A DNA stretch of 64,000 nucleotides from an uncultured Gammaproteobacteria bacterium (GTDB lineage Bacteria > Patescibacteriota > Patescibacteriia > Magasanikbacterales > UBA922), in the NCBI GenBank assembly GCA_964447765.1, contig CAYUTO010000003.1:72919-136918 (forward strand), written 5' to 3'. The stretch's first letter is position 1. Every line of letters starts with the position of its first letter. Below, one piece after another: positions 16,503 to 61,340 of this stretch. The position numbers and the translations under genes are program-made. The notes beneath the pieces were generated by a model, which saw only the letters and a list, made by a program, of their open reading frames with translations, was not told the DNA's origin and ran no database searches.

Positions 16503-16587
16503 GAGTCAAAAGTCGTAAAGTGGAAAGTCGAAAGTCTAATTTTGTATTCTCTTTATGACTTTACGGACTTTATAGACTTTCGACTCA
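16503..16587. repeat. Intergenic palindromic repeat, family R1 (gtcgaaagtc/gactttcgac words)
   Basis: agtcaaaagtcgtaaagtggaaagtcgaaagtc ... atgactttacggactttatagactttcgactc; imperfect ~35-bp inverted arms. Confidence 0.7.
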
Positions 16588-16590
16588 TAC

Positions 16591-16662
16591 GGGCCTATAG
16601 TTCAATGGATAGAACACCAGCCTTCTAAGCTGGTTATGCAGGTTCGATTCCTGCTGGGCCCA
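16591..16662 (+). tRNA. tRNA-Arg (anticodon TCT)
   Basis: Cloverleaf read manually: acceptor gggccta/tgggccc, D-arm gttc...gaac, anticodon stem ccagc/gctgg with loop cttctaa, T-arm gcagg-ttcgatt-cctgc. No encoded CCA. Confidence 0.85.
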
Positions 16663-16667
16663 CACAT

Positions 16668-16701
16668 GAAAACCGTCCTCCGACTCTGAGGGCGGTTTTT
16701 T
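16668..16701 (+). terminator. Rho-independent terminator after tRNA-Arg
   Basis: aaccgtcctccgactctgagggcggtttttt; GC stem then a T-tract. Confidence 0.55.
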
Positions 16702-16768
16702 ATACCAAACTCTTGCATTTGTAGCGACTTTACGCAATACTACTAGCATAATTCTTATACTACACAAT

Positions 16769-17503
16769 ATGTGGGTACTCGTAGGAATCGTACTGTTCAT
16801 CATATTTATCAGTGTCCGACAGGTGAACCAGTACCAGAGAGGTGTGAAGTTTCAACTCGGTAAATATGTAAAGATTGTTGAACCAGGATGGAGATTGGTA
16901 TTCCCGATTATTCAGAGTATGCAAAAAGTGGATATCCGTACCAAGGCAGTTGATGTACCTTATCAGGAAGCAATTACCAAAGATAACGTATCTGCAAAAA
17001 TTAATGCGGTAATCTACTATCGAGTTTCTGATGCAGCAAAAGCAATACTCGAAGTAGAAAACTTCTGGTTTGCCGTTTCCCAACTTGCACAAACTACCAT
17101 GCGAAATGTGGTAGGACAACTCGAGCTCGATGAACTTCTTGCTCGCCGTGAAGAAGCTGCAAAAAGAATCCGAGAAATTATTGACGTTGCTTCTGACCCT
17201 TGGGGAATTAAAGTTGAAAGTGTGGAATTGAAAGACGTCACACTCCCCGATGACATGCAGCGAGTAATTGCAAAACAAGCTGAAGCTGAACGTGAAAAGC
17301 GAGCAGTGATTATCAAAGCAGAAGGAGAAATCGCAGCCGCAACAAACATTGCAAAAGCTGCTGACATGCTTTCAGGTAGCCCTGGAGCACTCCACCTCCG
17401 TACCCTAAGTACTATCAATGATGTAAGTAGTGACCAATCAAATACGATCATTTTTGCAGTACCTCTCGAAATATTGCGTTCATTTGAACGTTCAAACCAA
17501 TAA
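16769..17503 (+). CDS. SPFH/band-7 (stomatin/prohibitin-like) membrane protein
   Basis: N-terminal TM, then RQVNQYQRGVKFQLGKY ... INAVIYYRV ... coiled-coil tail; classic SPFH pattern. Confidence 0.85.
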   Translation: MWVLVGIVLFIIFISVRQVNQYQRGVKFQLGKYVKIVEPGWRLVFPIIQSMQKVDIRTKAVDVPYQEAITKDNVSAKINAVIYYRVSDAAKAILEVENFWFAVSQLAQTTMRNVVGQLELDELLARREEAAKRIREIIDVASDPWGIKVESVELKDVTLPDDMQRVIAKQAEAEREKRAVIIKAEGEIAAATNIAKAADMLSGSPGALHLRTLSTINDVSSDQSNTIIFAVPLEILRSFERSNQ

Positions 17504-17522
17504 TATTCGATATCTATATCAT

Positions 17523-17549
17523 AAAAGCCCCTATTACAGGGGCTTTTAT
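17523..17549. terminator. Hairpin terminator
   Basis: aaaagcccctattacaggggctttt. Confidence 0.65.
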
Positions 17550-17640
17550 GATATAGTATGGGTTGACAAAAAACACACGCACAAGTATACTGTGCTTCAC
17601 ATTACGTACAACAAATAATTGATGCAGAGGTCAGGTTTGG

Positions 17641-17715
17641 GGTGGCTATGGTGTAGTGGTAACACAGAGGTTTGTGGTACCTTTATCACGGGTTCGATCC
17701 CCGTTAGCCACCCCA
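17641..17715 (+). tRNA. tRNA-His (anticodon GTG) with G-1 and encoded CCA
   Basis: Acceptor gtggcta/tagccac preceded by an extra G (G-1). Discriminator C followed by an encoded CCA. Anticodon loop ttGTGgt, T-arm acggg-ttcgatc-cccgt. Confidence 0.8.
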
Positions 17716-17744
17716 AAAAGGATCTCTCAAATAAAACGTCTGTA

Positions 17745-17764: not shown

Positions 17765-17796
17765 AAACTCGGGTATACTAGTGACGCATATCTACT

Positions 17797-18918
17797 ATGA
17801 TCCACACACATAAAAAAATACTTATTGTTTCCCTTTCGGCAGGGTCAGGTCATATCCAGACTGCTAAAGCGCTTGAAAAAGCTGCTAAACTTGATTTTCC
17901 CGAACTTGAGTGTAGGCACATCGACATTGCTGACTATATTACCCCCTTGCTCAAAAAAACTACGGTTGAAGGATATGATTTTCTCGTATCCCATCTTCCC
18001 AAAGTCTGGTCTGGATTATTCCGAATCTCTGATAATAAGGTATTTATAAAAACATATCATGCTCTTACTGATTACCTAAAAATGCTTAGTTCATTTGAAT
18101 TTCTTCAGGAAGTCGAAAATTTTGCACCCGACCACATTATCACCACTCATTTTTTACCTTCGGAAATTTTGGCACACGCCATGAAAAAACGCAGCAAAGC
18201 TGTTCCTATTACTCAAATAGTTACCGACTACGGTCTACACCCTATGATCGTGATTAATGGAGTAACAAATTATGTAGTGAGCACACCCGAGATGAAAGAG
18301 GAATTAATTCACACGCACAAAATCCCCTCTACCCGTATTCATGAATTTGGTATTCCGATTGACCCTGCTTTTTATCACACACCATCACTCGAAGAAGCAC
18401 GAGTGAAACTGAAACTACCCGAAGACAAACCTTTGGTTTTATTACTTTCTGGTGGAAGTGGAATGATTGAACTTGCCGATACTATCGAAGAATTATTTGC
18501 ACACTTACAGCTACCTACCGCTATAGTTGCAGTAACGGGGAAAAATAAAAAAATGCTTACTCGTATTTCGAAGCTCAGTCCACCAGCACACATTACCTAC
18601 ATCCCACTCGGCTGGACTGATGATATTTCTTCGCTTATGAAATTAGCTTCAGTTGTCGTAAGCAAACCAGGAGGACTCACGACTACCGAATGCACTGTGT
18701 CTCAGGTTCCTCTTATTGCCATTCATCCGATTCCTGGTCAGGAAGAATTTAATGTAGAATATTTGAAAAAAAATCATCTCGGTGACCACGCTCCAACTAC
18801 CAGAGACGTATTACCGCTTGTAACCCACTACCTCTCACAAAAGACTACAAAAAAAGACTACACACGGGTGCAGTCTGGTACACAATTACTAGAATTTATT
18901 TCACAATTGAAAACTTAG
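17797..18918 (+). CDS. GT28-family glycosyltransferase (MGDG synthase/MurG-like)
   Basis: N-terminal KILIVSLSAGSGHIQTAKAL (MGDG synthase/UgtP-like G-loop). C-terminal PGGLTTTE ... glycosyltransferase family 28 C-terminal pattern. Confidence 0.7.
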   Translation: MIHTHKKILIVSLSAGSGHIQTAKALEKAAKLDFPELECRHIDIADYITPLLKKTTVEGYDFLVSHLPKVWSGLFRISDNKVFIKTYHALTDYLKMLSSFEFLQEVENFAPDHIITTHFLPSEILAHAMKKRSKAVPITQIVTDYGLHPMIVINGVTNYVVSTPEMKEELIHTHKIPSTRIHEFGIPIDPAFYHTPSLEEARVKLKLPEDKPLVLLLSGGSGMIELADTIEELFAHLQLPTAIVAVTGKNKKMLTRISKLSPPAHITYIPLGWTDDISSLMKLASVVVSKPGGLTTTECTVSQVPLIAIHPIPGQEEFNVEYLKKNHLGDHAPTTRDVLPLVTHYLSQKTTKKDYTRVQSGTQLLEFISQLKT

Positions 18919-19388
18919 AATTCATCAGGATATGAATCATTATATCCAGGTGTTATCGGATTATTGATACTCCCATACAAACCCATATATATAAAGTAGG
19001 TGATACTATAAGCACCCAGTATTACCGCGGTTCCTGTTACACAATACATTAAAATTTTCTTTCCCGTCTCGATTTTTTCTTCATTACCACTGGAGGTCAT
19101 GATGACAAATCCTGCATACAAGGCCAAAGCAACAGCAATGATGCCCATTACACCCAAAAATGTTTTGATCAGTTTTGCCACGATTATTCGAGGGTCACTG
19201 TGTGTTAATTTGGCCCCCTTATCACCACCAAATGCATTGAGTTGTGCTTCCATTTCTGAACCTTGAAATTGCCCTGGTGTTTGAGTTGATGGGCTCGTAG
19301 CAAACACTATACTAGGCATACTTGAAAAAAGTATTCCGAGTAAGAATGTAGCACCTACGATCAATTTTTTTATTTTTTTCATATTCAA
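18915..19388 (-). CDS. T4SS-pilin-like (VirB2/TrbC-type) small secreted membrane protein, paralog 1 of 11
   Basis: Signal peptide, then two hydrophobic helices around a polar turn: IIAVALALYAGFVIMTSSGNEEKIETGKKILMYCVTGTAVILGAYSIT. Confidence 0.7.
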   Translation of the reverse strand: MNMKKIKKLIVGATFLLGILFSSMPSIVFATSPSTQTPGQFQGSEMEAQLNAFGGDKGAKLTHSDPRIIVAKLIKTFLGVMGIIAVALALYAGFVIMTSSGNEEKIETGKKILMYCVTGTAVILGAYSITYFIYMGLYGSINNPITPGYNDSYPDEF

Positions 19389-19397
19389 GCTTCAAAT

Positions 19398-19811
19398 TTA
19401 TTGTTGACCTATCGTTTCTGCAAGAATTCGGCTTGTTACAAAACTGGTGATGCTATATGCAGATAAAATAATAATAAGCCCAACAACTGCATAACCGATG
19501 ATTTTTTTTGCTTTTGATAGATTTTCTTCGTTACCCGCAGCTGTAAAAATCAGAAAGCCGGCATAGACCACCAACACCACAAACATAATTCCTAACAAGG
19601 ACAATACCAACTGGATTCCTTTGGCAACGGTAATACGAATATCTTGCGCTTCGGTACCATATCCTGCAGCTTGAGATCCAGCATTGAGCTGCCCCATGAT
19701 GTCTGGACCAGTAGTTGTTGCTAGAGCTCCTGCTGGCGAAAAAACAAATACTCCAAACATTAGGAATGAAGTAAAAAGTACACGCACAGCTAGTGCTTTC
19801 ATTTTTTGCAT
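19398..19811 (-). CDS. T4SS-pilin-like protein, paralog 2
   Basis: LSLLGIMFVVLVVYAGFLIFTAAGNEENLSKAKKIIGYAVVGLIIILSAYSIT; same architecture. Confidence 0.7.
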   Translation of the reverse strand: MQKMKALAVRVLFTSFLMFGVFVFSPAGALATTTGPDIMGQLNAGSQAAGYGTEAQDIRITVAKGIQLVLSLLGIMFVVLVVYAGFLIFTAAGNEENLSKAKKIIGYAVVGLIIILSAYSITSFVTSRILAETIGQQ

Positions 19812-19815
19812 ATTT

Positions 19816-20238
19816 TTATGGTGTGGCGGCAGGAGTCGGAGTAGTTGGAGTACTTACTGATCCTTCCAATACTCGTGGAACTACAAATCTGGTAATACTA
19901 TAAGCTGCCATGAGAATGATGAGTCCTATTACTGCTCGACCTATAATATTTTTCGCCTTAGTAACTTGCTCGTCTTCTCCTAGTGCCATCATCCAAAGGT
20001 AGCCAGCGTATACGATGAGTACGGTGAATAGTACTCCTAATACTGAAAATAATACGGTGATCAGTCTTCCAATATTTTCTGCTAATGTTGTCTCTGTTGC
20101 TTTTACAAACCCTGCTTGCGTTCCTGCTTTATGCACATCATCAATACCTAGATTTTGAGTATAGACAGTAGTACTTAATAGACCAGAAAATAGAAACGCG
20201 GCTAACAAAAAAATTTTAACAGTTTGTAGTTTTTTCAT
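19816..20238 (-). CDS. T4SS-pilin-like protein, paralog 3 (C-terminal T/P-rich tail)
   Basis: Start at MKKLQTVK. VLFTVLIVYAGYLWMMALGEDEQVTKAKNIIGRAVIGLIILMAAYSIT ... TPTTPTPAATP. Confidence 0.65.
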   Translation of the reverse strand: MKKLQTVKIFLLAAFLFSGLLSTTVYTQNLGIDDVHKAGTQAGFVKATETTLAENIGRLITVLFSVLGVLFTVLIVYAGYLWMMALGEDEQVTKAKNIIGRAVIGLIILMAAYSITRFVVPRVLEGSVSTPTTPTPAATP

Positions 20239-20239
20239 A

Positions 20240-20635
20240 TTATTGACCACTAAATCGTGACGTAATAAACACGGTGATTGCATATGATGATACCACAATA
20301 AACAGCCCCATGATTGATGATTTGATAATTTCTTTTGCTTTATTCACTTGCTCGTCCTCTCCTCCTGCAGTCATCCAGAGATACCCTGCGTAGACAGTAA
20401 GCACTAGGAATATAATACCTACCAGACTCAACACTGTTTTTATCACATTTCCTACCACGACAGTTAGGTCAGTAGGCACATTTCCCCCAATACCTTTTTG
20501 TAAATTCTTCAGATTATCGTCTGCATTGCCCAAATTTTGATTTGTGCCCATTACTCGACTTGGTAATGCCATAATACTGAGAGATATCAGAACTCCTCGT
20601 ATCCAGTATTTTTTTACGCTATTAATAATTTTCAT
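20240..20635 (-). CDS. T4SS-pilin-like protein, paralog 4
   Basis: LSLVGIIFLVLTVYAGYLWMTAGGEDEQVNKAKEIIKSSIMGLFIVVSSYAIT. Confidence 0.7.
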   Translation of the reverse strand: MKIINSVKKYWIRGVLISLSIMALPSRVMGTNQNLGNADDNLKNLQKGIGGNVPTDLTVVVGNVIKTVLSLVGIIFLVLTVYAGYLWMTAGGEDEQVNKAKEIIKSSIMGLFIVVSSYAITVFITSRFSGQ

Positions 20636-20650
20636 AACTAGTTCAAATTA

Positions 20651-21061
20651 CTATCCAAAATTGATTGCATTGGTTATAAATGCTGCAATAGCATATGCAC
20701 TCACCGTGATTATCAATCCAATGATTGCAGCAATTAATGTCTGGCGAGATTTGGCGATTTTTTCTTCTTCTCCTCGAGCGAGGAACCAGGTGATTCCCGC
20801 ATAGAGTGTGAGGACAAAGAATAAAAGACCTAATATTCCAAATAGCCACTGCGCGACTGATCCAATATATGTCGCTATTTCGTTTTTTGGTAACCCGGTA
20901 GGCCCTACCGCTGATTCCAGTGCTGCCCCCGCATCTTCGATGGTTTTTTTGGCGTGTACCTTATTAAAAAACAACAATGAAGCTGCCACAGCAAGAGGAA
21001 TACTCAGAAACAAGGTTTTAATTTTTGAATAGACCCACATGTTTAAATAATTTATTTTCAT
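20651..21061 (-). CDS. T4SS-pilin-like protein, paralog 5
   Basis: LFGILGLLFFVLTLYAGITWFLARGEEEKIAKSRQTLIAAIIGLIITVSAYAIA. Confidence 0.7.
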   Translation of the reverse strand: MKINYLNMWVYSKIKTLFLSIPLAVAASLLFFNKVHAKKTIEDAGAALESAVGPTGLPKNEIATYIGSVAQWLFGILGLLFFVLTLYAGITWFLARGEEEKIAKSRQTLIAAIIGLIITVSAYAIAAFITNAINFG

Positions 21062-21218
21062 TAGTTTATTCTTAATCCCCCTATAGAAGGACTAAACACT
21101 TAATTGACCTTATTTAATAACGTGGTTTTTTACATTAAACAGAGGTTACTACGTTACGCTCATCTTTTATTTTATTAACGTAAATAGCTTCTCCCATACT
21201 GCTCATCCGCGAGCTCGA

Positions 21219-21767
21219 TTACGTATCTACACACAAACTTGCTTCATTCGGATCACTACTGTCACACTCCCAACCTGACTCTACTGTACAAGTTGCACTA
21301 CACCCATCTCCTGGATTTGTATTTAAATCGTCACATTCTTCAGCACCTTCTCTTTTTCCGTTTCCACATACCGTTCCTGTAGGTGTTGTCTGAGTAGTAG
21401 TGCCTCCACTATTTGATCCAAGCTTAAACACAAAGTTAGTAAGGGCGTATGCTCCGATAACAATGATAATTCCGATTGTCGCAGCAATAATTGTATTTAG
21501 GGCTTTTTCTGTCGTCTCTGAACTACCTCTCGCCGTCATCCAGAGAATACCCCCGTATAGCACGAGCACAAAGAATAGAACCGAAATCATCGAAAGCAGC
21601 GTTCCAATGATATTACCCGCAATAGTTGGAACACTATCTCCGTAGGTATCAAGCTTTGCTGCACTTGCTGTATCTTTCAGCCCAAAATCATTAGCAAGAA
21701 CGGTAGTGCCGAAAGCGAAAATTGAGAATGCTGCGATAAGACCGATAAGTAAATACACTTTTTTCAT
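21219..21767 (-). CDS. T4SS-pilin-like protein, paralog 6, with C-terminal Myxococcus-type cysteine-rich repeat
   Basis: Start at MKKVYLL. Pilin core LLSMISVLFFVLVLYGGILWMTARGSSETTEKALNTIIAATIGIIIVIGAYAL. Tail CGNGKREGAEECDDLNTNPGDGCSATCTVESGWEC matches the CxxGxxExxEECDDGNxxxGDGCSxxC repeat pattern. Confidence 0.65.
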   Translation of the reverse strand: MKKVYLLIGLIAAFSIFAFGTTVLANDFGLKDTASAAKLDTYGDSVPTIAGNIIGTLLSMISVLFFVLVLYGGILWMTARGSSETTEKALNTIIAATIGIIIVIGAYALTNFVFKLGSNSGGTTTQTTPTGTVCGNGKREGAEECDDLNTNPGDGCSATCTVESGWECDSSDPNEASLCVDT

Positions 21768-21786
21768 AAGAAAAAATTGATTAATT

Positions 21787-22242
21787 TCATGGAGAGTAGC
21801 CCGATGTTCCTGATGAGTATTGATTTCCACATGACGTGCCAATAGTCTCACAAAGAGAACGCAATACAAAACTCATAATAGAGTACGATGCCATAATAAT
21901 CACAAGTCCCATGACCGCAGCGCTTAGTATTTTTTTTGCACTGCCCACCTTCTCATCATTACCTCCTGCGGTCATCCAGGTGAACCCAGCGTAGAGAACA
22001 ATAATCACGGCAATGATCCCTAATAGACTCAAGGCAAAATTGATAATACGCACCGTAATAATACGAGGATCTTCCGCACTCAACCCTGAGTACTGTGTCC
22101 CTGCACAATCAAGCCCTAGAATGTCACCTGCACCTGTCTGTCCATCACAACCTTGCGCCAAGGATTTCACTGGAAAAAAGGCTATAATTAGAGCAAAACA
22201 AATAACTGAGAAAAGAGTTGCGAGAACTAATTTTTTATTCAT
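21787..22242 (-). CDS. T4SS-pilin-like protein, paralog 7
   Basis: Start at MNKKLV; the longer ORF extension upstream is rejected. ALSLLGIIAVIIVLYAGFTWMTAGGNDEKVGSAKKILSAAVMGLVIIMASYSIM; Cys pairs lie N- and C-terminal of the core. Confidence 0.65.
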   Translation of the reverse strand: MNKKLVLATLFSVICFALIIAFFPVKSLAQGCDGQTGAGDILGLDCAGTQYSGLSAEDPRIITVRIINFALSLLGIIAVIIVLYAGFTWMTAGGNDEKVGSAKKILSAAVMGLVIIMASYSIMSFVLRSLCETIGTSCGNQYSSGTSGYSP

Positions 22243-22343
22243 ACAGAATAGGTGAGAGTCAAAGCTTTCCTGGCCAGTAACGTGCCTATGACCAGTGAAA
22301 GCTCTGACACCCGTATGGGTGCCTGAGTCTGACAACTGTATTT

Positions 22344-22760
22344 TTACGCTTCTTCGACAGCTGTCTGAATAGAATTGATAAAGAAATTTGCAATTGCGTA
22401 TGCAGATAGAATGATCGCGAGACCAATCACTGCAGCAATGATAATTTTCTTTGCAGCTTCTACACTTTCGTCGTTTCCGCCGGCGGTCATCCACTTGAAA
22501 CCACCCCAGAGGATCAATATAACTGCGATTAAACCTAGGAACGTCAATGCGAGGTTGATAATATTTACTACTACCGCGCGCGCATCAGTTTCTTCAGTAC
22601 TGATGTTTAAACCAGTCGTTGGCTCAATTCCAAATGGATCATCAGAACCATTTCCTGTTGCCAAACTTACCTTTGGTGACAACGTAAACACCGTTACCAA
22701 AGCTACAATACCAAGCATGATATTTCTATGCTTTAGTAATTTTGCTTGTATGTTTTTCAT
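22344..22760 (-). CDS. T4SS-pilin-like protein, paralog 8
   Basis: ALTFLGLIAVILILWGGFKWMTAGGNDESVEAAKKIIIAAVIGLAIILSAYAIA. Confidence 0.7.
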   Translation of the reverse strand: MKNIQAKLLKHRNIMLGIVALVTVFTLSPKVSLATGNGSDDPFGIEPTTGLNISTEETDARAVVVNIINLALTFLGLIAVILILWGGFKWMTAGGNDESVEAAKKIIIAAVIGLAIILSAYAIANFFINSIQTAVEEA

Positions 22761-22837
22761 ACTCCCTCACCCCCCTTCAATTTTTTACATGTTTTATGCA
22801 TAATATTCACTAGTGTGATATGTATATACGTAGATTA

Positions 22838-23245
22838 TTAGTTTGGACTAGCTTGTAGAGTATTCAAAATCAACGTAATTATAGCATAGCTACTGAAAAT
22901 CACAATAATTCCAATCCCAGCCCAGAGCATAGCTTGTAAACCCTTCTGAATCCTTTCAGAATTCCCTGCTGAAGTGAGCCAAAGCACACCTCCATATACG
23001 AATACTACGAAGGTGATTGAACCGATGATTCCCATGATAGCCCCAATGCTATTCCCAATAATCGTTTTAATATCTGTTGTTGCAAGTGGATTGGTAAGTG
23101 AGACACAATCTTGTCCTTCACGACAACCGATCGTTGGAGTACTCGAGGCCAAGGCTAATTGAAAATTACTAACACTCACCAGAGTGCTTAGTATAATTAC
23201 CATAATTCCGACTAACTTTGTCCTATTTTTTTTCATATCAACCAT
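22838..23245 (-). CDS. T4SS-pilin-like protein, paralog 9
   Basis: IMGIIGSITFVVFVYGGVLWLTSAGNSERIQKGLQAMLWAGIGIIVIFSSYAII. Confidence 0.7.
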   Translation of the reverse strand: MVDMKKNRTKLVGIMVIILSTLVSVSNFQLALASSTPTIGCREGQDCVSLTNPLATTDIKTIIGNSIGAIMGIIGSITFVVFVYGGVLWLTSAGNSERIQKGLQAMLWAGIGIIVIFSSYAIITLILNTLQASPN

Positions 23246-23257
23246 ACTGGTGCCAAA

Positions 23258-24349
23258 TTAGGAAGTAATCCCGATAGCTTTTACAATAAAACTTACTAAT
23301 ACATACGCTGAAAACGCGATAATCATACCTACCGTTGCTGCGACCAATATTTGTTTTCCTTGTCCTACTTTTTCTGAATTTCCAAATGATAGAACCATAG
23401 TGAGTCCACCATAGACAAAGAACGCAAATCCAAGACCAGCTATAATACCAAATAACCAAGTTGCTACGTTTACACCCAATTGCACCAAATCTTCTACGTT
23501 GCGACATGACCCAGTAAATGCGCAGGAAGGAAGTGGACCTTGATAACCATCTGGTGCCTTATATCGTTCAGCAATATACTGGTCAATTGCTTTTGACACC
23601 TCCACTTCAGTCGTTTTCTTTACACATGTATTATTTTCTCCTGTCGTACAATGTCGTGCAGCCGAACAAACGTCTGAGGGTAATTGAGTACAATCGATAC
23701 TTGAGTCATCTTTTGCAAGACATTTAGCCCCAGCTACTTGCCAAAAACATTGAGAGTTCGCTTCACACGTTGACTTGTCTTTCCCATTATTTTGAGCACA
23801 TATTCCAACTGGATTTTCTAGCTGCTGCTCGAGAGAAGCCGTTGCTACATAATACACCTGAAAATCCATATTTAACCCCGCATCTTCTCCTTCAAAATAG
23901 TAACGAGTAAACACACCTGAAGAAGGTACGTATGGTGTAGCATGATAGGTTATACTTGCCGGCTGATTGTCGTCTTGGGTGGTATTCCAACTCAAAGTCG
24001 AATTTCCATTATCAGATTTTTCTTCCCTTACATATTCTCCTCGTTGCAATTTATCTGCATTCTGTTTGATAAAACGACTGCTGTCACGGAGATTTACCCA
24101 CTCCACAACTGAAGTATTATTTGCCACCTCGACACAAAAAATTTCAAATGCAGTCCCTGGGACATTGGGGTCTGCCAACACACTGTCATTATTCCCAATA
24201 GAAAAAATAAGTAATTTATGATTTTCTCGTGCAAATGATTGACACTTTCCCCCTGTAAATTCTGACGCACTTACTTGTTGCGCGCTAAAAAGACACACTA
24301 CGCTCAACAAAGTTAACCAGAATATTTTGTGAATTTTTTCTAAGCGCAT
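23258..24349 (-). CDS. Large Cys-rich secreted protein with C-terminal T4SS-pilin-like domain, paralog 10
   Basis: Signal peptide, ~280 aa ectodomain with more than 14 Cys, then LFGIIAGLGFAFFVYGGLTMVLSFGNSEKVGQGKQILVAATVGMIIAFSAYVLV. Confidence 0.65.
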   Translation of the reverse strand: MRLEKIHKIFWLTLLSVVCLFSAQQVSASEFTGGKCQSFARENHKLLIFSIGNNDSVLADPNVPGTAFEIFCVEVANNTSVVEWVNLRDSSRFIKQNADKLQRGEYVREEKSDNGNSTLSWNTTQDDNQPASITYHATPYVPSSGVFTRYYFEGEDAGLNMDFQVYYVATASLEQQLENPVGICAQNNGKDKSTCEANSQCFWQVAGAKCLAKDDSSIDCTQLPSDVCSAARHCTTGENNTCVKKTTEVEVSKAIDQYIAERYKAPDGYQGPLPSCAFTGSCRNVEDLVQLGVNVATWLFGIIAGLGFAFFVYGGLTMVLSFGNSEKVGQGKQILVAATVGMIIAFSAYVLVSFIVKAIGITS

Positions 24350-25737: not shown

Positions 25738-25752
25738 AAAATTTAGAGGAGA

Positions 25753-25822
25753 AATTAAAGATTAAAGATTGAATAAACGGAATATTAGTCTTTAATCTTT
25801 AATTTTTAATTTTTATTCTTTA
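25753..25822. repeat. Intergenic palindromic repeat, family R2 (aagattaaagatt/aatctttaatctt words)
   Basis: aaattaaagattaaagattg ... agtctttaatctttaatttttaatttttattcttt. Confidence 0.65.
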
Positions 25823-27374: not shown

Positions 27375-27505
27375 ACTTTCTTTTTACAATAAGATGGTGA
27401 GTAGTATACCACAATATTCAAAATACATGGAACACGATACACGACGAATACAGATACAAGTGAATTTGAATTTATTTGGTATAGTGTTCCATGTATTTTG
27501 TATTT

Positions 27506-28888
27506 TTATTTCACCTCTTCCCAACTAATAAGTTCATACGTAGAACCCACTGGAAAGCCAGGTGGTGGATAATATTTCAAATTACCATCGTACACATGGT
27601 TGGTGTAATAGTACCCTGATACTACTTGCCCCCCTGTATTAATATATTTCCAACCCCCACCAGCATATGAAATTTGAGACCCAAAAAAGGTAAGCGAATT
27701 TTTGAGAGCACCTGCATGCTCATTCGGATTATAGTATGGGGTAAAAATTTTTCCATATTGTGTCAGCGCAGCTGCATTAATCTCCAGATTAGTTGGTGCT
27801 TCATACGGCACAATAATATCACCCTGAGCAATGATACCGATCACATCATCGCTTGATTTTTGTTTTTGCAATAAATTATTCGAAATAAACACTTCTTTCT
27901 GATTACTTGGTACAGGGAAATTACCTACACCGATAGTTATTCTCCCGTCTACAGTTCCTTGCAACCATGTATTATCTTCAATAAACATTACCCCGTTTGC
28001 CGGAAGCGTATACGTACCTATTGTAGTTTTGGTACCAATATCATAGCAATACGTGGTCCCATTCCAATACCACCCCGACCAACTTGATCTCCAACTTCCT
28101 TCGCCATAATAACAATCTCTGGTATTTACCCGGTACACGGTATATTGGGTATTATTAAATATAATTTGGTATCCTTCTGCCCCAGAAGAAGCCAAATATT
28201 TTCCGCCATTCTGAGCAGCAGTACGAATAGCTGAGAGATCAGCAGATACTGAACCAAAATCAGCCGCAGGAACAGGAAATTCCCAATAATAGGTAGGTCC
28301 ACCAGTCCCCCAGATTCCAGGCCTTGTAGTGCCTTGGTAATTATAGGTAGACTTTGCACTCCTGACCCATGAGTCAGTTGTACCATCAAATTTGATTCCG
28401 CCATTCGACATAATCTCTCCATGCACCTCGGTCGTAGCACTAAATGACATATCAACGTTTTGTATAAAGGCACTATCTGTAAACGAAGGGAAGCCTAATC
28501 GCACCTTTAGAGCCCGGTTTGCATTTGGAGAAGAAACCACCGTTCCCGTAGACGCAACGGCGATGACTGAAGAGTTTGGTAGTGGGGTTGAAATATTAAT
28601 TGCATAACTTCCAACAACATCATTAAACTTATCTTTTACCGTATGAACATACGGGCCAGGTTGTCCTGTGCCGTCAGTAAAATCTGTTGGATTATGCGCT
28701 AGATGCCAACGATAATAATTGATACCTGCCTCAGCAATATGAAACGTCACATCTCGACGATAATATTCCAGTGAAATTCTATGTTCAAATAGAGCATAGC
28801 TCAAAATACCCAACACCATAATCACAAAAGCAATCGAACCAAAAACCATGACGATGAGAAGTGTATTGCCGGCGTATTTTTTTATCAT
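27506..28888 (-). CDS. N-terminally anchored extracellular protein (possible pilus tip/PilX-like component), W/Y/G/T-rich
   Basis: Single N-terminal TM (LLIVMVFGSIAFVIMVLGILSYALF), then a ~430 aa aromatic/Gly-rich domain. Last gene of the minus-strand pilin operon. Confidence 0.45.
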   Translation of the reverse strand: MIKKYAGNTLLIVMVFGSIAFVIMVLGILSYALFEHRISLEYYRRDVTFHIAEAGINYYRWHLAHNPTDFTDGTGQPGPYVHTVKDKFNDVVGSYAINISTPLPNSSVIAVASTGTVVSSPNANRALKVRLGFPSFTDSAFIQNVDMSFSATTEVHGEIMSNGGIKFDGTTDSWVRSAKSTYNYQGTTRPGIWGTGGPTYYWEFPVPAADFGSVSADLSAIRTAAQNGGKYLASSGAEGYQIIFNNTQYTVYRVNTRDCYYGEGSWRSSWSGWYWNGTTYCYDIGTKTTIGTYTLPANGVMFIEDNTWLQGTVDGRITIGVGNFPVPSNQKEVFISNNLLQKQKSSDDVIGIIAQGDIIVPYEAPTNLEINAAALTQYGKIFTPYYNPNEHAGALKNSLTFFGSQISYAGGGWKYINTGGQVVSGYYYTNHVYDGNLKYYPPPGFPVGSTYELISWEEVK

Positions 28889-28897: not shown

Positions 28898-29012
28898 TAG
28901 TCGAAAGTCGAAAAGTCTGTAAAGTTATAAAGTCGAGAGGTGGAATGAAAAGCGTTTTCCATGACTTTCACCCTGCCGACAGGCAGGACTTTATAGACTT
29001 TTTTGACTTCGT
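28898..29012. repeat. Intergenic palindromic repeat, family R1
   Basis: agtcgaaagtcgaaaagtctgtaaagttataaagtcgag ... gactttatagacttttttgacttcgtgactc, with a central ccctgccgacaggcagg hairpin. Confidence 0.7.
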
Positions 29013-29019
29013 GACTCTA

Positions 29020-29643
29020 TTAATTCGTTTTCAAATTTCTGATATGAGTAAGTGATTCGACCCTCAAGGGCACTGGACTTTTAGTCACATCCTTTTCGAT
29101 TTCAATAATAATTTTTATCATTCGGATATTGGTAAGAGTAATCGGGAGAGTCATCGCAGCTTGTGACCCCGTATATGATTCTGTAAAATACTGAAATGTT
29201 GGTGTGCCTCTACTTGCGTTTTGCACATAACTTGCAATAGTAGTGATTTGCTCCTGACCTGTATAACTCAGGGGATTTCCACTTGGTTTCAATATTCCTC
29301 TCCTCAAATCAGTACCTGAAAGCCAATAACGCACCCGCTCACGTAAACTATCTCCATCAATATTTGCATACACCGTGAGAGATGAAGTGGTAGCCTGTGC
29401 AACTGGATACGAACCAATACTCGATTGTTCGGCAGTTCTAATCGTATTGACGATTTCAGAAATTACACGACGAGCGTCTTTTTGACCAAATAATTGATCA
29501 TTGAGTATGCGCTGATTGCGAAAACTCAATATGATAAATGATGTAGCTCCCAACATTACAATCATAGTGATTCCTAATACCACTGATACTTCAATCAAGC
29601 TCATGCCCCGAGTATACTCACTTTTTTTTGTAAAAACTTTCAT
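29020..29643 (-). CDS. Prepilin-type N-terminal cleavage/methylation domain protein (pseudopilin/minor pilin)
   Basis: Class III signal RG|MSLIEVSVVLGI at the N-terminus. Confidence 0.7.
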   Translation of the reverse strand: MKVFTKKSEYTRGMSLIEVSVVLGITMIVMLGATSFIILSFRNQRILNDQLFGQKDARRVISEIVNTIRTAEQSSIGSYPVAQATTSSLTVYANIDGDSLRERVRYWLSGTDLRRGILKPSGNPLSYTGQEQITTIASYVQNASRGTPTFQYFTESYTGSQAAMTLPITLTNIRMIKIIIEIEKDVTKSPVPLRVESLTHIRNLKTN

Positions 29644-31918: not shown

Positions 31919-31992
31919 TTGAAGACTAAAAATCGAAGATTAAATGCAGATATTCCAATCTTTAATCTTCGATTTTTATTTTTTATTCTTTC
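31919..31992. repeat. Intergenic palindromic repeat, family R2
   Basis: gaagactaaaaatcgaagattaaa ... tttaatcttcgatttttattttttattcttt. Confidence 0.65.
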
Positions 31993-33330: not shown

Positions 33331-33465
33331 AACTTTGACCTTTCAAAAATACACGTTAAATTAAATATTTTTAGATACTAAAACGACACCAATTTTATTT
33401 TTACGACCGCGGAGACTATATCAATGTATAAGGTATTTGTCAATAGAGTAGTTAGCACGGAAATA

Positions 33466-35319: not shown

Positions 35320-35323
35320 TTAT

Positions 35324-36448: not shown

Positions 36449-36457
36449 ACTATTCAC

Positions 36458-48213: not shown

Positions 48214-48294
48214 AGTCGAAAGTCCATAAAGTAAAAAGTCGAAAGGTTATTTGTATTTTATTTTCGACTTTTTAGACTTTGTGACTTTCGACTA
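48214..48294. repeat. Intergenic palindromic repeat, family R1
   Basis: agtcgaaagtccataaagtaaaaagtcgaaag ... tttcgactttttagactttgtgactttcgact. Confidence 0.75.
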
Positions 48295-48358
48295 AAAAAG
48301 AATAGCCAGGGTACATGAAAGCGCGAATGCGCCGTCAGTGTCCCTGGCGATGATAGGC

Positions 48359-48793: not shown

Positions 48794-49042
48794 CTCGAAC
48801 ACTTATGCCCTCGTTTCTCATGCCTGCGCCAGGAAAGCACCTGCTCGTTGGAACAATAGTCCACCGAACCTTTGTTCCTTATCCTGTGACACACATGAGT
48901 CTACGCCCACTCCTCCTTATGCCAGTAGGCTGTAATTTGACTATAACACATGTAAGATTAAAAGTTAAAAGTAAAAAGATAGTGCAAATACAAAAAAATA
49001 CACGAAATTTTTCTCTCGTGTATTTTTTTGCCTTTTGCGCTT

Positions 49043-50278
49043 TTACTTTTGCCTTTTCTCAATATGTATAAAATGTCCAAACCCAAGACTGTGAATTGTC
49101 CAATCAAATACGATTCGTAATTTTCGAAGGATTCCTGGCATATACAACACATATACTGTTCGTCGTATCCACCATGCAAACCAACCATAAAACTCCATAT
49201 TACCAATTACCGCAATTCCATACCAATCTCCGACTGGCATAAGTTGGCCTTTTGATTTGAATACAAATGGTTTTACTTCTTTTCCTGCAATTCTCCGCGC
49301 AATATCAATCCCTACGAACCTACCTGCTTTATGAGCTACTTCGGCAAGTTGAGGGCACGGTTTTCCAGTAATACCGTCAAGAGTGTAGGCAATATCCCCG
49401 ATTGCATAACATGTTTCATCCCCTTCCATTCGCAAATACTGATCCACCTTAATTCTACCTTTCTCACATTTACTCTCTTCTACAAACTGTGTACCTAAAT
49501 TCATAAATCCGGCTGCCCACACCGTAATATCACTGGTAATTTCCTCGCCCGTTTTCAATATTACTGAGTTTTTAGTGACTTTAGCGACTGAATTATTATA
49601 TACAAATTCTACTCCTAGTTTTTCTAGACGTTTGGTTACATGCGCCTGCATACTTGGTTTCATCGCAGACAAAACTGAACTATTTGGTTCAATCACACGG
49701 ACGGTGATTTTTTTGTGTGGATATAATTTTTTTAAATCACCATTTTTCAGTGTTCCATATTGTCCTGCAATTTCCACCCCCACATATCCTCCCCCAACAA
49801 CCGTAATCACGCACTCGTCAGTTTTGCAATTCTCAAGATTCTCCACCAAGGCGTATTTGAGTGCAAGCGCATCTTTCAAACTTCGCACATGATGGGTAAA
49901 TTCAGTAGTCCCTGGCACGCCATAGAAATTCACTGTGCTTCCCATCGCAACAATGCAATAATCATACGAAATAATACCACTCGTGGTATGGACTTCTTTT
50001 TTTTCATACTGAATATTCTCTACCTTGGCATTGATATAAGTATGAGGAGTATTATGCACCAATTCACGCAGCGGAATTGATGCATGTGTCGATTCAACAG
50101 AACCTGTAGCAACCTCGTGTAACAAAGGAATAAAAGTAAAATAATTATTTTCATCGACTATCGTAATATGACTCCCTAGTCCTTTTCGCTCCAAGCTTCG
50201 ATTCAACGTACGAAATGCTTCGTATCCTCCAATTCCGGCCCCAAGAATTACAATATCTGTTTTTATTTTTTCCATCAT
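49043..50278 (-). CDS. ndh: Type II NADH dehydrogenase / FAD-dependent pyridine nucleotide-disulfide oxidoreductase
   Basis: KTDIVILGAGIGGYEA FAD motif, second Rossmann VTVVGGGYVGVEIAG, and C-terminal membrane-association region. Confidence 0.8.
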   Translation of the reverse strand: MMEKIKTDIVILGAGIGGYEAFRTLNRSLERKGLGSHITIVDENNYFTFIPLLHEVATGSVESTHASIPLRELVHNTPHTYINAKVENIQYEKKEVHTTSGIISYDYCIVAMGSTVNFYGVPGTTEFTHHVRSLKDALALKYALVENLENCKTDECVITVVGGGYVGVEIAGQYGTLKNGDLKKLYPHKKITVRVIEPNSSVLSAMKPSMQAHVTKRLEKLGVEFVYNNSVAKVTKNSVILKTGEEITSDITVWAAGFMNLGTQFVEESKCEKGRIKVDQYLRMEGDETCYAIGDIAYTLDGITGKPCPQLAEVAHKAGRFVGIDIARRIAGKEVKPFVFKSKGQLMPVGDWYGIAVIGNMEFYGWFAWWIRRTVYVLYMPGILRKLRIVFDWTIHSLGFGHFIHIEKRQK

Positions 50279-54626: not shown

Positions 54627-54867
54627 ATATAAAGTATTTTAATCTTCTAATCTTCAATCTTTATTCTTCAGTTATTTCTTCCCTATTTTCCCAAAGAAAA
54701 ACGCGATCAGTGTCGCAGCAATTGATCCGAGGATTAGTATGAGAATTGATAAGAATCCATCCATAGTATTATCCATAATAACACAAACTTTTCTCTCTGT
54801 CATTGTGTCATTCCGAGCGAGTGCACTCGAGTCGAGGAATCCCTTGTTTTGCAATAATATACGGTAA

Positions 54868-58796: not shown

Positions 58797-59870
58797 ATGT
58801 TATCGATTGGAATTGTCGGACTCCCCAATGTAGGAAAATCAACACTTTTTAACGCGCTTACCAAAAGTAAGCTCGCTGAAGCTGCTAATTATCCTTTTTG
58901 TACTATTGAACCTAATGTTGGTGTAGTTGAAGTTCCAGACGAGCGACTTGCGCCACTTGCCACTACTTCAAAATCGGGAAAAATTATCCCAACCGCAATT
59001 CAATTTGTTGATATTGCAGGAATTGTAAAAGGCGCATCAGAAGGTGAAGGATTGGGAAACAAATTTCTTACTCATATCCGTGAAGCTGACGCGATTGTAC
59101 AGGTCGTACGTGCGTTTGAAGATGGAAATATCATTCACGTATCAGGAAAAGTAGATCCAAAAGACGATAGTGATGTAATCAATCTTGAACTCGCACTTGC
59201 CGACCTTGCAACCGTCTCAAAACGATTGGATAAAACAAAACGCGATGCAAAAGGTGCAGCGGCAAAAGGAAAAGAAGTGGAGATTGCAGTACTCGAAAAA
59301 CTAAACGCACAATTGGGAAGTGGATTACCCACACGAGATCTTGAATTTAATGATGATGAAAAACTAATTGTACGAGATCTACACTTACTTACCATGAAAC
59401 CCATGATGTACGTGGTGAATGTAGAAGAAACTGCGGTAGGGAAAGTAGATTTCAAAAGTATTTTTGGTGCAACTCCCTATATAGAGATCAGTGCAAAAAT
59501 TGAATCAGAAATTGCTGAATTAAATTCTGAAGATGCAAAAATGTTTATGGATGATCTAGGAATGAAAGAAACTGGGCTTGATCGATTAATTGTTGCTGGA
59601 TACAAACTACTTAATCTCATTACATACTTTACTTCTGGAGAACAAGAAACACGTGCATGGACAGTTACAAGTGGGACTCTCGGCCCTGATGCTGCAGGAG
59701 TCATTCATACTGATTTTGTCAAAGGATATATCAAAGCTGATGTTGCAAGTGTTGCCGACTTTGTAGAACTTGGTGGCTGGCCAGGAGTAAAAGAAAAAGG
59801 AAAGATGCAGTTAGTCGGAAAAGATTATGAAGTGAAAGATGGTGATGTATGTTACTTTCATATCGCTTAA
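58797..59870 (+). CDS. ychF: Redox-regulated ATPase YchF (Obg-family)
   Basis: GIVGLPNVGKSTLFNALT P-loop, DIAGIVKGAS, TGS-type C-terminus. Confidence 0.9.
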   Translation: MLSIGIVGLPNVGKSTLFNALTKSKLAEAANYPFCTIEPNVGVVEVPDERLAPLATTSKSGKIIPTAIQFVDIAGIVKGASEGEGLGNKFLTHIREADAIVQVVRAFEDGNIIHVSGKVDPKDDSDVINLELALADLATVSKRLDKTKRDAKGAAAKGKEVEIAVLEKLNAQLGSGLPTRDLEFNDDEKLIVRDLHLLTMKPMMYVVNVEETAVGKVDFKSIFGATPYIEISAKIESEIAELNSEDAKMFMDDLGMKETGLDRLIVAGYKLLNLITYFTSGEQETRAWTVTSGTLGPDAAGVIHTDFVKGYIKADVASVADFVELGGWPGVKEKGKMQLVGKDYEVKDGDVCYFHIA

Positions 59871-59910
59871 CCTAGTCACGAGTCAGTAAAGTCATAAAGT
59901 CGAAAGTAAA
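59871..59910. repeat. Intergenic repeat, family R1 (partial)
   Basis: cctagtcacgagtcagtaaagtcataaagtcgaaagtaaa. Confidence 0.55.
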
Positions 59911-59971
59911 ATGCACATGCAAAAAAAGTAAACGAAAAAGTTAAAAGAAAATACAAATACAATTCATAAAT

Positions 59972-60002
59972 AAAAATCCGCCGTATGGCGGGTTTTGTTT
60001 TT
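59972..60002 (+). terminator. Rho-independent terminator after ychF
   Basis: aaaaatccgccgtatggcgggttttgttttt. Confidence 0.7.
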
Positions 60003-60127
60003 ACCTTTCGTCCTTATCTTCAGGACTCATCAGTTCATGTTTCACATGAAGAGGTCGGCCGTTTTTTTGAGGTACGGCGTAACCTCTCTCCGTTTTACGA
60101 AATGGAGATAAAACTTATACGTAAGGA

Positions 60128-60460
60128 TCAATCAGACTTCTGGTTCATCGCCTCCCACGTCTCTTCGAGAGACTTGCGCACTGCCTCTTGCTCGTGGAAT
60201 TCTCTGTTCACCTTCAGGACAAGGTCCTTCAGATTCAGGAGTATGAAGTAAAGCACGATATCATCTTCTTCGGACAACCCCTTGTCCGAATAGTAGATCC
60301 CTCGAGCTTCGGAGTATTTAACACTCCCTTTCTCCTTTTCTCCGGTCACCTGGACTTCCACTTCCACCACCCATGCGAGACCAGTGATACGGTCTCTGAT
60401 GGCGTCGGAGATCGCGGTAATCTGAAGTACCCACTGCTCTCGCTTGATTTTACTGTTCAT
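60128..60460 (-). CDS. Hypothetical protein in GC-rich islet 6
   Basis: 110 aa. Promoter-like gcCTTGACAacaagcgcttattttggTTAACT on the minus strand upstream (~60565-60595). Confidence 0.4.
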   Translation of the reverse strand: MNSKIKREQWVLQITAISDAIRDRITGLAWVVEVEVQVTGEKEKGSVKYSEARGIYYSDKGLSEEDDIVLYFILLNLKDLVLKVNREFHEQEAVRKSLEETWEAMNQKSD

Positions 60461-60592
60461 TCAGTTCCCCTTGGTGGCCATTACAGACCGATTGAAATGC
60501 ACACAAACCTAGAAACCAACTTTGATTTCCACCATTGTGCGCACTTATACTTAAAGGAGAATGATTTAGTTAACCAAAATAAGCGCTTGTTG

Positions 60593-60853
60593 TCAAGGCT
60601 TATCTATTCCACCTTTGGACCAGGGATTACATCGAATTATCCGCCAGGCCGCTCTGGGTAGACCCTGGATCACTCCATATTTTTTGATTACTTGATACCC
60701 ATACTCACTACAACTCGGAGTAAATTTACAATATCCATAGGGAAATTTTGCCTTCATAGGCCCATGATCAGGTGAAAGTGTTCGCTGATACACCCGAATA
60801 ACAAATAGGAGTATATTTTTGGGAATGGTAATAATAAAACGAAGTAATCGCAT
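60593..60853 (-). CDS. yidD: Membrane protein insertion efficiency factor YidD
   Basis: YQRTLSPDHGP...CKFTPSCSEYGYQVIKKYG; canonical YidD. Confidence 0.8.
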   Translation of the reverse strand: MRLLRFIITIPKNILLFVIRVYQRTLSPDHGPMKAKFPYGYCKFTPSCSEYGYQVIKKYGVIQGLPRAAWRIIRCNPWSKGGIDKP

Positions 60854-60883
60854 ATTTTAGCTTAGTTGAGAGAAAAAAGACGA

Positions 60884-61261
60884 TTAGATGAGTAATCGAG
60901 CTTTTTTGAGAATAGATTCAATATCCTGAGTAATATCAGCATATTCTGCGCTAAAAAGCTTTGGAGTAGATAAAAATGCAATAAAGTAGCCTTCTTTAAT
61001 TCTTTTATCCTTAAGGAGCAGACGAACCACTTCTCGCATCTGCCGCTTCACTCGATTACGCCCCACAGCTTTCTTTTCATGCTTCACACTCGCTACAAAC
61101 CCGATTTTTAGATCATTTTCTACATATCCACGCTTAGGATACTTAGCCGGATCAATTTTCCAGATCTTTGCCCCCACAATATTACCCGACACAAATCTAC
61201 CCTCTTTAAAAAGGATTTCAAAGTCTTTCATTTTTTTAAGCCTACACTCCTGAGATAACAT
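60884..61261 (-). CDS. rnpA: RNase P protein component
   Basis: KKAVGRNRVKRQMREVVRLLL basic RNR-like motif. Start is uncertain: TTG at 61294, or ATG at 61261 or 61231. Confidence 0.75.
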   Translation of the reverse strand: MLSQECRLKKMKDFEILFKEGRFVSGNIVGAKIWKIDPAKYPKRGYVENDLKIGFVASVKHEKKAVGRNRVKRQMREVVRLLLKDKRIKEGYFIAFLSTPKLFSAEYADITQDIESILKKARLLI

Positions 61262-61299
61262 AGCTAAATTGTGTACGCCTTCATAAAGATACAAATTTT

Positions 61300-61340
61300 C
61301 TTTCGACTTTATGGACTTTCCGACTTTTGACTAAAGGTAA
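61300..61340. repeat. Intergenic repeat, family R1 (partial)
   Basis: tttcgactttatggactttccgacttttgac. Confidence 0.55.

Follow-up and report, generated by a model that had tools for sequence, protein, structure and literature searches.

What are the short palindromes, built from reiterated AAAGTC words, that occupy gaps between genes in the stretch of DNA considered here (64,000 nucleotides of contig CAYUTO010000003.1, positions 72,919 to 136,918; hereafter the window), and how did they come to be there? The host of the window is a genome of the Patescibacteria (candidate phyla radiation, CPR) near Candidatus Magasanikbacteria; members of the Patescibacteria have small, streamlined genomes, from which few mobile elements have been described. 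A preliminary description of the sequence had proposed a lineage-specific family, R1, resembling repetitive extragenic palindromes (REP) or miniature inverted-repeat transposable elements (MITE), with copies at six loci. R1 is a genuine palindromic repeat family of unusual, word-built design, and it is part of a wider, fast-turnover set in the operon spacers of Patescibacteria. As to its nature, the reading that we favour, with a little better than even confidence, is that the R1 elements are small non-coding palindromic repeats of the REP/MITE/SPRITE kind, which would be copied at the DNA level, reshaped by local word slippage, tolerated in transcribed spacers as leaky A/U-rich hairpins, and occasionally responsible for remodelling promoters.

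Word hairpins of this type fill the spacers of operons, where their turnover is faster than that of the surrounding genes. Effects on operon punctuation and on promoter architecture are likely; at one tRNA promoter a copy has taken the place of the −10 region. The hairpins offer practical markers for strain typing and are likely causes of breaks in metagenome assemblies, while the word arrays are a source of low-complexity peptide linkers.

Structure of the R1 elements

Inspection of the sequence together with a pattern scan shows that all six loci are present and share the words; the full elements are hairpins of 80–120 bp in short gaps between genes. Three copies, E1, E2 and E3 (to none of which a strand is assigned), each fold as a single long imperfect hairpin, having a 5′ arm of four to five AAAGTC words and a 3′ arm of the complementary GACTTT words. 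Their RNA folding energies are −27.4, −47.5 and −35.2 kcal/mol respectively (z-scores −4.2, −6.0 and −7.8), the corresponding z-scores for DNA folding are −3.3, −5.4 and −6.9, and no shuffled sequence reached equal folding. A pattern describing one right arm, GACTTTNNNGACTTTN{1,3}GACTTN{1,3}GACT, matches the window exactly four times, these being the four right arms, and has no match in 100 shuffles.

E1 (16503–16587) lies between the stop codon of a tyrosine-recombinase gene (16496) and a tRNA-Arg(TCT) gene (16591), beginning 6 nt past the former and ending 3 nt ahead of the latter; its left arm reads GAGTC AAAAGTC GTAAAGTG GAAAGTC GAAAGTC, its loop TAATTTTGTATTCTCTTTAT, and its right arm GACTTTACG GACTTTATA GACTTTC GACTC. 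E2 (28898–29016, and so running slightly past the end at 29012 that had been given for it) lies in the spacer between two co-directional minus-strand genes (29020–29643 and 27506–28888), and its apex holds two small inner hairpins, CCTGCCGACAGGCAGG among them. E3 (48214–48294) begins at the polA stop codon, between the convergent genes polA and orf147 and beside the orf147 terminator. The placement originally reported, after stop codons or between operon genes, is the one found.

The same cannot be said of the long imperfect inverted repeats originally reported for every locus, since the remaining loci are of other kinds. On the plus strand at 59873–59910 there is a solo A-rich arm, TAGTCAC GAGTC AGTAAAGTC ATAAAGTC GAAAGT, from which AAAAAGT words continue to about 59945; it lies in a variable spacer between the ychF stop codon (59870) and a conserved terminator (59971–60000). 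On the minus strand at 61280–61333, between rpmH and rnpA and downstream of the rpmH terminator (61349–61374), there is a half-element consisting of an A-rich arm (61296–61333; AGTCAAAAGTCGGAAAGTCCATAAAGTCGAAAG) and a loop remnant, AAAATTTGTATCTTTATGA, which is homologous to the E1 loop. Neither of these single arms folds locally (DNA z-scores −1.6 and −0.1); the two arms are, on the other hand, 79% complementary to one another across 1385 nt. The 1.4-kb interval between them encodes rnpA, yidD and a small open reading frame (ORF) without assignment, and the possibility that the pair delimits a composite transposon was rejected, as relatives keep the rnpA–yidD gene order without the arms. The sixth locus (2486–2527, minus strand) is a tandem of perfect units, (GAAAGTC)x4.7, within ileS, where it encodes KVESRKSKVESK.

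Word grammar and symmetry

A grammar was parsed from 50 arms belonging to 25 Patescibacteria hairpins, read from the outer end. The outermost sequence is TAGTC in 17 arms, AAGTC in 16, GAGTC in 8 and something else in the other 9, and the rule that emerges is a terminus (T/G)AGTC followed by 7-mers of the form RAAAGTC and 9-mers of the form YRTAAAGTC. In most arms a 7-mer, GAAAGTC or AAAAGTC, stands first, while further inward the 9-mers prevail (CATAAAGTC, TATAAAGTC, CGTAAAGTC, TGTAAAGTC). Both the number and the order of words differ between copies, implying that arms are able to pair in more than one register; this redundancy would allow the hairpins to survive insertions and deletions (indels). 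Over all loci, every one of 33 hairpins has its A-rich arm ahead of its T-rich arm.

The loop motif TTTGTAT is common to E1, E3 and the half-element in the rnpA leader, and the loop and inner right arm of E1 (ATTTTGTATTCTCTTTATGACTTTA) closely resemble those of a copy in a relative (TTTGCGTATTCTCTTATGACTTTA; L122:300–403), which occupies a different locus, the rpsF–pilB interval.

It is as DNA that the palindromes are symmetric. Among 21 copies for which the direction of transcription is known, the sense RNA folds better in 10 and the antisense RNA in 11 (Wilcoxon p 0.13), so that there is no sign of selection on G-U pairs, and selection for sense RNA structure by this means was rejected. Pairing of arms with their own rather than with foreign partners was significant when compared, but this is uninformative, given that each palindrome has unique inner sequence. 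An analogy with DNA uptake sequences was likewise rejected, as outside the arrays the hexamer shows no enrichment, with 20 + 31 copies where about 40 would be expected.

Ribbon-helix-helix proteins such as omega of pSM19035, or those acting at MetJ boxes, bind heptad or iteron arrays, which like R1 comprise contiguous words of 7–9 bp in direct or inverted arrangement. It might be asked whether the R1 words are reiterated, iteron-like or heptad-like binding sites for a sequence-specific DNA- or RNA-binding protein common to Patescibacteria and Bacteroidota (a regulator of the ribbon-helix-helix type, a nucleoid protein, or even the mobilising enzyme itself), with the arrays acting as functional cis elements. 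The strictness of the grammar, with its two word types and defined outer terminus, the fixed rule of orientation (33 to 0), the recurrence of the grammar across phyla and the existence of solo arrays without a hairpin partner would all fit such a scheme. However, at least five other families with unrelated words and the same architecture coexist in the 64 kb, so that many proteins would be required; copies are dispensable among close relatives, and arrays occur also in coding sequences. No candidate protein was identified, nor was any cognate protein or link to promoters found. Taking these points together we regard binding sites as an improbable explanation.

Sister families of word-built hairpins

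R1 is only one of at least six sister families of word hairpins in the window, where some ten such hairpins cover about 1.4% of the sequence. In every family the 5′ arm is A-rich and the 3′ arm T-rich, a polarity like that of terminators. Family R2, made of AAGATT words, has three copies: one (25745–25819) fills the spacer between a pilin-like gene and a solute-binding-protein gene, a second (31922–31983) has the canonical rpsR terminator on one side and an extended −10 promoter on the other, and a third (33461–33535) lies between the divergent promoters of rpsF and pilB; their loops are related to one another (GGRATATCT). R3 (4516–4588), made of AACAATT/AGCAATG words, separates the ileS start codon (4508) from a T-box-like leader that has a terminator of its own. 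R4 (27413–27506), of ATACA/CATGGAAC words, lies between the orf460 stop codon and TGGTATACT, the extended −10 of the next gene, and in R6 (48959–49050) arms of AAAAGT words surround a canonical terminator core, AAAAAAATACACGA..TCGTGTATTTTTTT. As for E1–E3, no strand is assigned to any of these hairpins.

Relatives hold copies of the sister families elsewhere, for instance an R4-like copy in L210 and, in both L121 and L122, an R2 located upstream of rmuC. A further small hairpin-forming repeat, GTCATTCC...GGAATGAC, is found in the window at 54805–54834, at L205:11110–11150 and near position 7560 of L119; by comparison with L211, the copy in the window is an insertion.

Arrays within genes

Word arrays are by no means confined to spacers: in the scanned genomes 39 of 124 fall within stop-free stretches of at least 150 codons. 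In those Patescibacteria cases that were inspected the A-rich strand is the sense strand, yielding peptides rich in K, S, V and E such as SQKSIKSIKSKV or VESRKSIKSKV; the ORFs concerned have 600–1100 codons, and the intragenic pieces are single arms of 28–45 nt. In the window, the array in IleRS lies in a hypervariable linker, the length of which, judged by alignment with a solved IleRS and 12 representative homologues, is within the range seen among homologues. The perfect tandem units of GAAAGTC in ileS point to replication slippage, and suggest that word arrays can also grow in place.

The closest IleRS cluster representatives (P0362–P0510) are in many cases proteins of 1100–1470 residues that match the window protein in two to four separate stretches, which suggests a large insertion after about residue 485 of the window IleRS.

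Genomic context, terminators and promoters

The flanks of 31 hairpins were classified: 21 lie between co-directional genes, 4 between convergent and 2 between divergent genes, 1 is in a small ORF, and 3 are at contig edges. Copies in operon spacers fit tightly, starting 0–14 nt past the upstream stop codon and ending 1–19 nt before the next start, and neither a Shine-Dalgarno sequence nor a promoter is visible in between. From such positions in spacers and leaders we infer, as for all roles of R1 at the RNA level, that the elements would be transcribed as A/U-rich hairpins of terminator-like polarity, which by analogy with other repeats might act at most as leaky attenuators or as processing or stabilising hairpins; leaky attenuation, processing or stabilisation of transcripts are plausible by comparison with REP and Correia elements. 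In general, the elements would be tolerated rather than needed.

It had been suggested that several copies abut G+C-rich islets. G+C-rich sequence does adjoin R1 copies, but what was checked proved to consist of the terminators of orf147 (48305–48348), ychF/orf110 (59971–60000) and rpmH (61349–61374), all ordinary terminator stems, together with the inner hairpin of E2 and the tRNA-Arg gene (the islets originally meant were not mapped). The stem-loop beside E3 (48305–48348, minus strand) is conserved and is followed by TATTCTTTTTT, and is read as the intrinsic terminator of orf147.

Could the R1 hairpins then themselves be efficient bidirectional intrinsic terminators of a design specific to this lineage, in which each GUC...GAC step plus UUU would provide one termination register? 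Such a proposal draws on the A-rich 5′ arm and U-rich 3′ arm, present on both strands, on the position of E3 where relatives have a canonical polA terminator, and on the many copies that begin a few nucleotides past a stop codon. Nevertheless we consider it very improbable. A consensus terminator scan gave no terminator-like site at E1, E2 or E3, and no U-tract follows the full hairpins, the sequences that come after them being ATACGG, TATTAA and AAAAAAG; ordinary terminators having G+C stems and U-tracts coexist beside the copies in the window. In L206 only a lopsided remnant of the hairpin is retained. In the clearest operon spacers, where the next start is at most about 20 nt away and no promoter is visible, read-through would be required.

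An intrinsic terminator, moreover, belongs at the end of a transcription unit and not where it would separate an essential gene from its promoter or riboswitch, whereas E1, the arm ahead of rnpA and, among the sister hairpins, R3 lie in leaders. Upstream of ileS there is a T-box-like leader (4613–4900, minus strand; RF00230, 32.5 bits, which is below the gathering score, with an E-value of 1.3e-5 in a local search), comprising the T-box sequence GGUGGUACCGC and its own stem and U-tract ending near 4594; R3 sits between that terminator and the start of ileS, 7 nt ahead of the ATG. E1 similarly separates an apparently single-copy tRNA-Arg(TCT) gene from the sole −35 box that can be recognised. 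Positions such as these, in the leaders of essential genes, argue against strong termination, and taken with the want of room for promoters within operons they imply that the hairpins are not strong terminators. A search of Rfam did not add to the picture: only tRNAs reach the gathering score, and at E ≤ 1 nothing overlaps R1.

E1 is also the clearest case of a possible effect on a promoter. At 16493–16521 on the plus strand there is a promoter-like TTGACA-N17-TAAAGT, of which the −35 element is the ancestral tRNA-Arg box conserved in relatives, while the −10-like hexamer comes from the left arm of E1; judging from these elements the tRNA-Arg promoter is probably a hybrid to which E1 contributes the −10 hexamer, and we infer its use from them, with transcription predicted to begin at about 16528. 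That a promoter might be built into the arms generally was rejected, as a consensus scan gave only this hybrid site and one weak site at E2; the spacing of the words never places a −35-like TTGACT and a −10-like TAAAGT 16–18 nt apart inside one arm.

Turnover among relatives and the origin of the elements

For comparison, syntenic loci were fetched from seven relative genomes (by genome: L121; L122, L205 and L210; L123 and L207; L124; L206 and L209; L211). Around every R1 copy these relatives keep the gene order of the window, and next to E1 and the ychF arm there are only small indels of gene content, so that a link between R1 copies and synteny breakpoints, which had been put forward for checking, finds no support.

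The contents of the spacers are another matter. At the 3′ end of polA, where the window has E3, there is a lopsided, decayed R1 in L206, an R6 in L211 (of which the PolA is 97% identical) and L121, a hairpin of AAAAC words in L122, and plain terminators in the more distant L123 and L124; the R6 at this site in L211 and L121 is an inverted copy of the R6 located 0.8 kb away. The orf207–orf460 spacer, which in the window holds E2 (119 nt), is only 32 nt long and without a hairpin in L209, and 105 nt long without a word hairpin in L210. Upstream of tRNA-Arg a textbook TTGACA-N17-TACACT is conserved in L209 and L210; in the window the −35 box has been kept and the remainder replaced by E1. Between rpmH and rnpA the window has about 60 extra nt, containing the arm and loop remnant, where in L205, L206 and L207 the rpmH terminator is followed by a −10-like TATACT and there is no arm. 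In the spacer 3′ of ychF the window has AAAGTC words ahead of the terminator; L205 and L207 share its terminator stem, L206 has a different stem, and the A-rich spacer is variable. Lastly, between the divergent rpsF and pilB promoters, the window has R2 and L122 has R1 at the same site.

Elements are thus gained, lost, truncated, decayed and exchanged at fixed spacers, and loop-containing sequence is common to different loci; such turnover is the behaviour of a duplicative repeat family and not of conserved regulatory sites. To this extent the description of R1 as a REP/MITE-like family stands: E2 and the rnpA-leader arm are absent in relatives, E1 replaces a promoter region, loops and arms are homologous across loci, and R6 has an inverted duplicate. 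The description of the copies as insertion hotspots holds only in the sense that the family of word hairpin found in a given spacer differs from relative to relative. Spread would occur in the DNA, perhaps via hairpin or template-switch intermediates or by means of an enzyme acting in trans. Single words multiply as perfect tandem copies, as slippage predicts.

All this said, a number of findings weigh against regarding the elements as copied repeats of the REP/MITE/SPRITE kind, and neither a mobilising gene, nor a target duplication, nor a REP tag was found in the window and related loci. Among the ORFs of the window and the called genes of the related loci there is no transposase, RAYT, Tas or other candidate mobilising gene, and no autonomous element flanked by R1 arms was found in the available sequence, in which long-range pairs of arms enclose no consistent cargo. 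TA often flanks both ends of an element, but it belongs to the palindrome TAGTC...GACTA and is missing at E1; because the flanking TA is part of the palindrome, a target-site duplication is not definable. No pairs of filled and empty sites with clean junctions were found, sites appearing to have been replaced rather than simply inserted into, and alignment of the window with L211 likewise gave no clean hairpin insertion. Several copies bear copy-specific complementary sequence both outside and inside the word arrays, which would suit local growth of a palindrome equally well. Finally, as the IleRS linker is of a length within the homologue range, no insertion is evident there, and arrays may arise in place.

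An alternative is that the elements are of purely local origin: overgrown bidirectional terminators or other small palindromes, in which slippage of words in the A-rich and T-rich flanks would expand the arms and hairpin-templated (quasi-palindrome) correction would keep them symmetrical, with nothing moving between loci and with shared words reflecting mutational bias. The A-rich 5′ and T-rich 3′ extensions already present on the canonical terminators of the clade make a ready starting point; R6, L121, L031 and the ychF arm all offer examples of word arms beside a canonical terminator core, and the polA site of the more distant relatives has plain terminators. Every copy having its own complementary segments, the A-then-T polarity common to all six word families, and the perfect GAAAGTC tandem in an ileS linker of homologue-range length, are all in keeping with such a process. 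What makes local origin rather unlikely to our minds is that the loop and arm of E1 have a homologue in a copy that sits at a different locus of another genome, that R6 is duplicated in inverted orientation at a second site, that the R2 loops are related, and that hairpins occur where no terminator is needed, as between divergent promoters and in leaders. An identical grammar in distant phyla would in addition be hard to obtain from mutational bias alone, bearing in mind that 0.92 Mb of background sequence (see below) holds three such arrays, one of them GACTTT.

Two differences in gene content were noted in passing. The ychF–yidD interval (59911–60460 in the window) varies, encoding orf110 in the window, orf237 in L206, orf219 in L207 and no ORF in L205; these ORFs have no Pfam match. 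In L209 and L210 tRNA-Arg and the Band_7 gene are separated by a small zinc-ribbon-like ORF, and this ORF is missing in the window.

Distribution across phyla

R1 had been thought specific to its lineage, a view that is refuted by the occurrence of the arm pattern in more than 119 stretches of a collection of species-representative genomes, among the matches listed, with the same grammar across Patescibacteria and Bacteroidota. Those matches span many Patescibacteria classes (Magasanik-, Parcu-, Sacchari-, Gracili-, Gottesman-, Falkow-, Morani- and Buchananbacteria) and include Bacteroidales/Rikenellaceae, Sphingobacteriia and Chitinophagia; Mucilaginibacter, Chitinophagaceae and relatives use a G+C-richer dialect. 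The few matches in other phyla (two of them in Nitrospiraceae in a single coding context) look coincidental, falling within coding sequence.

In the sample, the arrays of Bacteroidales are all solo, many are long, and several loci concatenate other word arrays. Five Bacteroidales/Rikenellaceae loci (L036, L041, L073, L107 and L112) have composite direct arrays in the fixed order (TTTCGAT)n – (CGCAAAT)n – (GACTTTAYR)n, which look like a modular repeat element distinct from the hairpins of Patescibacteria.

An unbiased census of arrays of this shape, allowing any hexamer, found five in 261 kb of close relatives, all five of them AAAGTC/GACTTT. In 0.92 Mb of diverse YchF neighbourhoods, a background set furnished by a metagenome scan with YchF that returned only distant relatives, it found three, of which one was GACTTT. 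A looser census shows that loci of Patescibacteria and Bacteroidota bear many further word arrays.

One conjecture, which we hold to be rather unlikely, is that the AAAGTC grammar is the footprint of a single sequence-specific machinery shared or exchanged between Patescibacteria and Bacteroidota (a mobilising or word-adding enzyme, or a binding protein), which would write arrays into spacers, leaders and in-frame surface linkers of proteins, the sister families being due to related machineries. Phage origin was rejected, IMG/VR giving only five matches, all of them generic tandem repeats. A full-text literature search with six representative 15-mers found no paper containing them.

Comparison with known repeat systems

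Like REP sequences and their REPIN and BIME arrangements, R1 is short, non-coding, palindromic and multi-copy. REPs are found downstream of coding regions, for the most part where the neighbouring genes are co-directional or convergent, and are transcribed with the operon, some being intragenic, and there are several families per genome (PMC3733652); the co-directional and convergent placement of R1 matches this distribution. The differences are nonetheless considerable. A REP unit is its own palindrome of 20–40 bp, and a REPIN is two inverted REPs, whereas the arms of R1 are direct arrays of 7- and 9-nt words having no fold of their own. A REP has an unpaired tag, GTAG or CGTC, at one end (PMC3733652); R1 termini are TAGTC, AAGTC or GAGTC, with GTAG only accidental, as at E3. 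R1 is also A+T-rich, and no gene for RAYT, a Y1 HUH transposase, is seen in the window or related loci.

With MITEs (Correia elements in Neisseria, ERIC, RUP) R1 has in common a size of around 80–150 bp, terminal inverted repeats about a short non-coding core, a transcript that forms a long hairpin, presence or absence that varies between related genomes, and internal sequence common to copies. Correia insertions beside genes can make hybrid promoters (PMC10969869), which resemble the TTGACA-N17-TAAAGT of E1. However, a MITE has a fixed terminal inverted repeat, while the arms of R1 are internally repetitive and variable in the number and order of words, and no parent insertion sequence with R1 ends was found.

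SPRITE is a repeat family resembling an intrinsic terminator, named in PMC10969869; compared by its name and general character only, it finds a parallel in the canonical terminator core of R6 and the terminator polarity of all the word families, but R1 has neither a G+C-rich core nor a trailing U-tract. Rickettsia palindromic elements (RPE) are repeats in frame inside the protein genes of a reduced genome (PMC10969869), recalling the word arrays inside long ORFs (39 of 124). They are whole elements of about 150 bp, in contrast to the single arms that make up the intragenic pieces of R1, of which the IleRS array lies in a hypervariable linker.

Two more remote candidates were rejected. TIGR arrays consist of two alternating repeats of 8–12 nt with 9-nt spacers, in a unit of about 36 nt repeated 5–15 times, and they adjoin a Tas gene with a Nop domain (PMC12045711); in R1 the period is 7–9 nt with only 1–3 variable bases, each arm has four to five words and there is no 36-nt period, and no Nop-domain family is among the Pfam matches for genes of the window and related loci. 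In the case of integron attC sites, inspection shows that the ends of R1, (T/G)AGTC...GACT(A/C), are not RYYYAAC...GTTRRRY, and a cassette array is absent.

The organism and other features of the window

The nearest named homologues of PolA and YchF are from Magasanikbacteria, at about 59–74% identity, and relatives without names reach 80–97%. The window is matched by two Logan contigs of run SRR12712864: L208 is identical to it base for base, and L001 encodes an identical PolA. Several metagenome-assembled genomes titled “uncultured Gammaproteobacteria” in GenBank are in fact close relatives, and their labels look wrong. One example is CAYMVY01 (CAYMVY010000001.1; L037/L122/L205/L210), of which PolA is 91% and YchF 93% identical to those of the window and in which gene order agrees across the fetched loci; for other assemblies so labelled, the sole evidence of mislabelling is that they carry the same repeat arrays.

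Beside a type IV pilus cluster (pilB, pilC and pilM, at 33559–37564) the window has about ten tandem small genes with a T4SS_pilin domain (18915–24349, minus strand). In a relative (L209:20827–21231; JBPOJQ01) a bAvd gene, an accessory of diversity-generating retroelements, stands beside the tyrosine recombinase; it has no counterpart in the window. Close to rpmH–rnpA, at 62147–62175, three adjacent DnaA boxes (TTATCCACA, TCATCCACA and TAATCCACA) lie upstream of dnaA (62255–63643), and this cluster is probably oriC or the dnaA promoter region. The GC skew is negative over the entire window.

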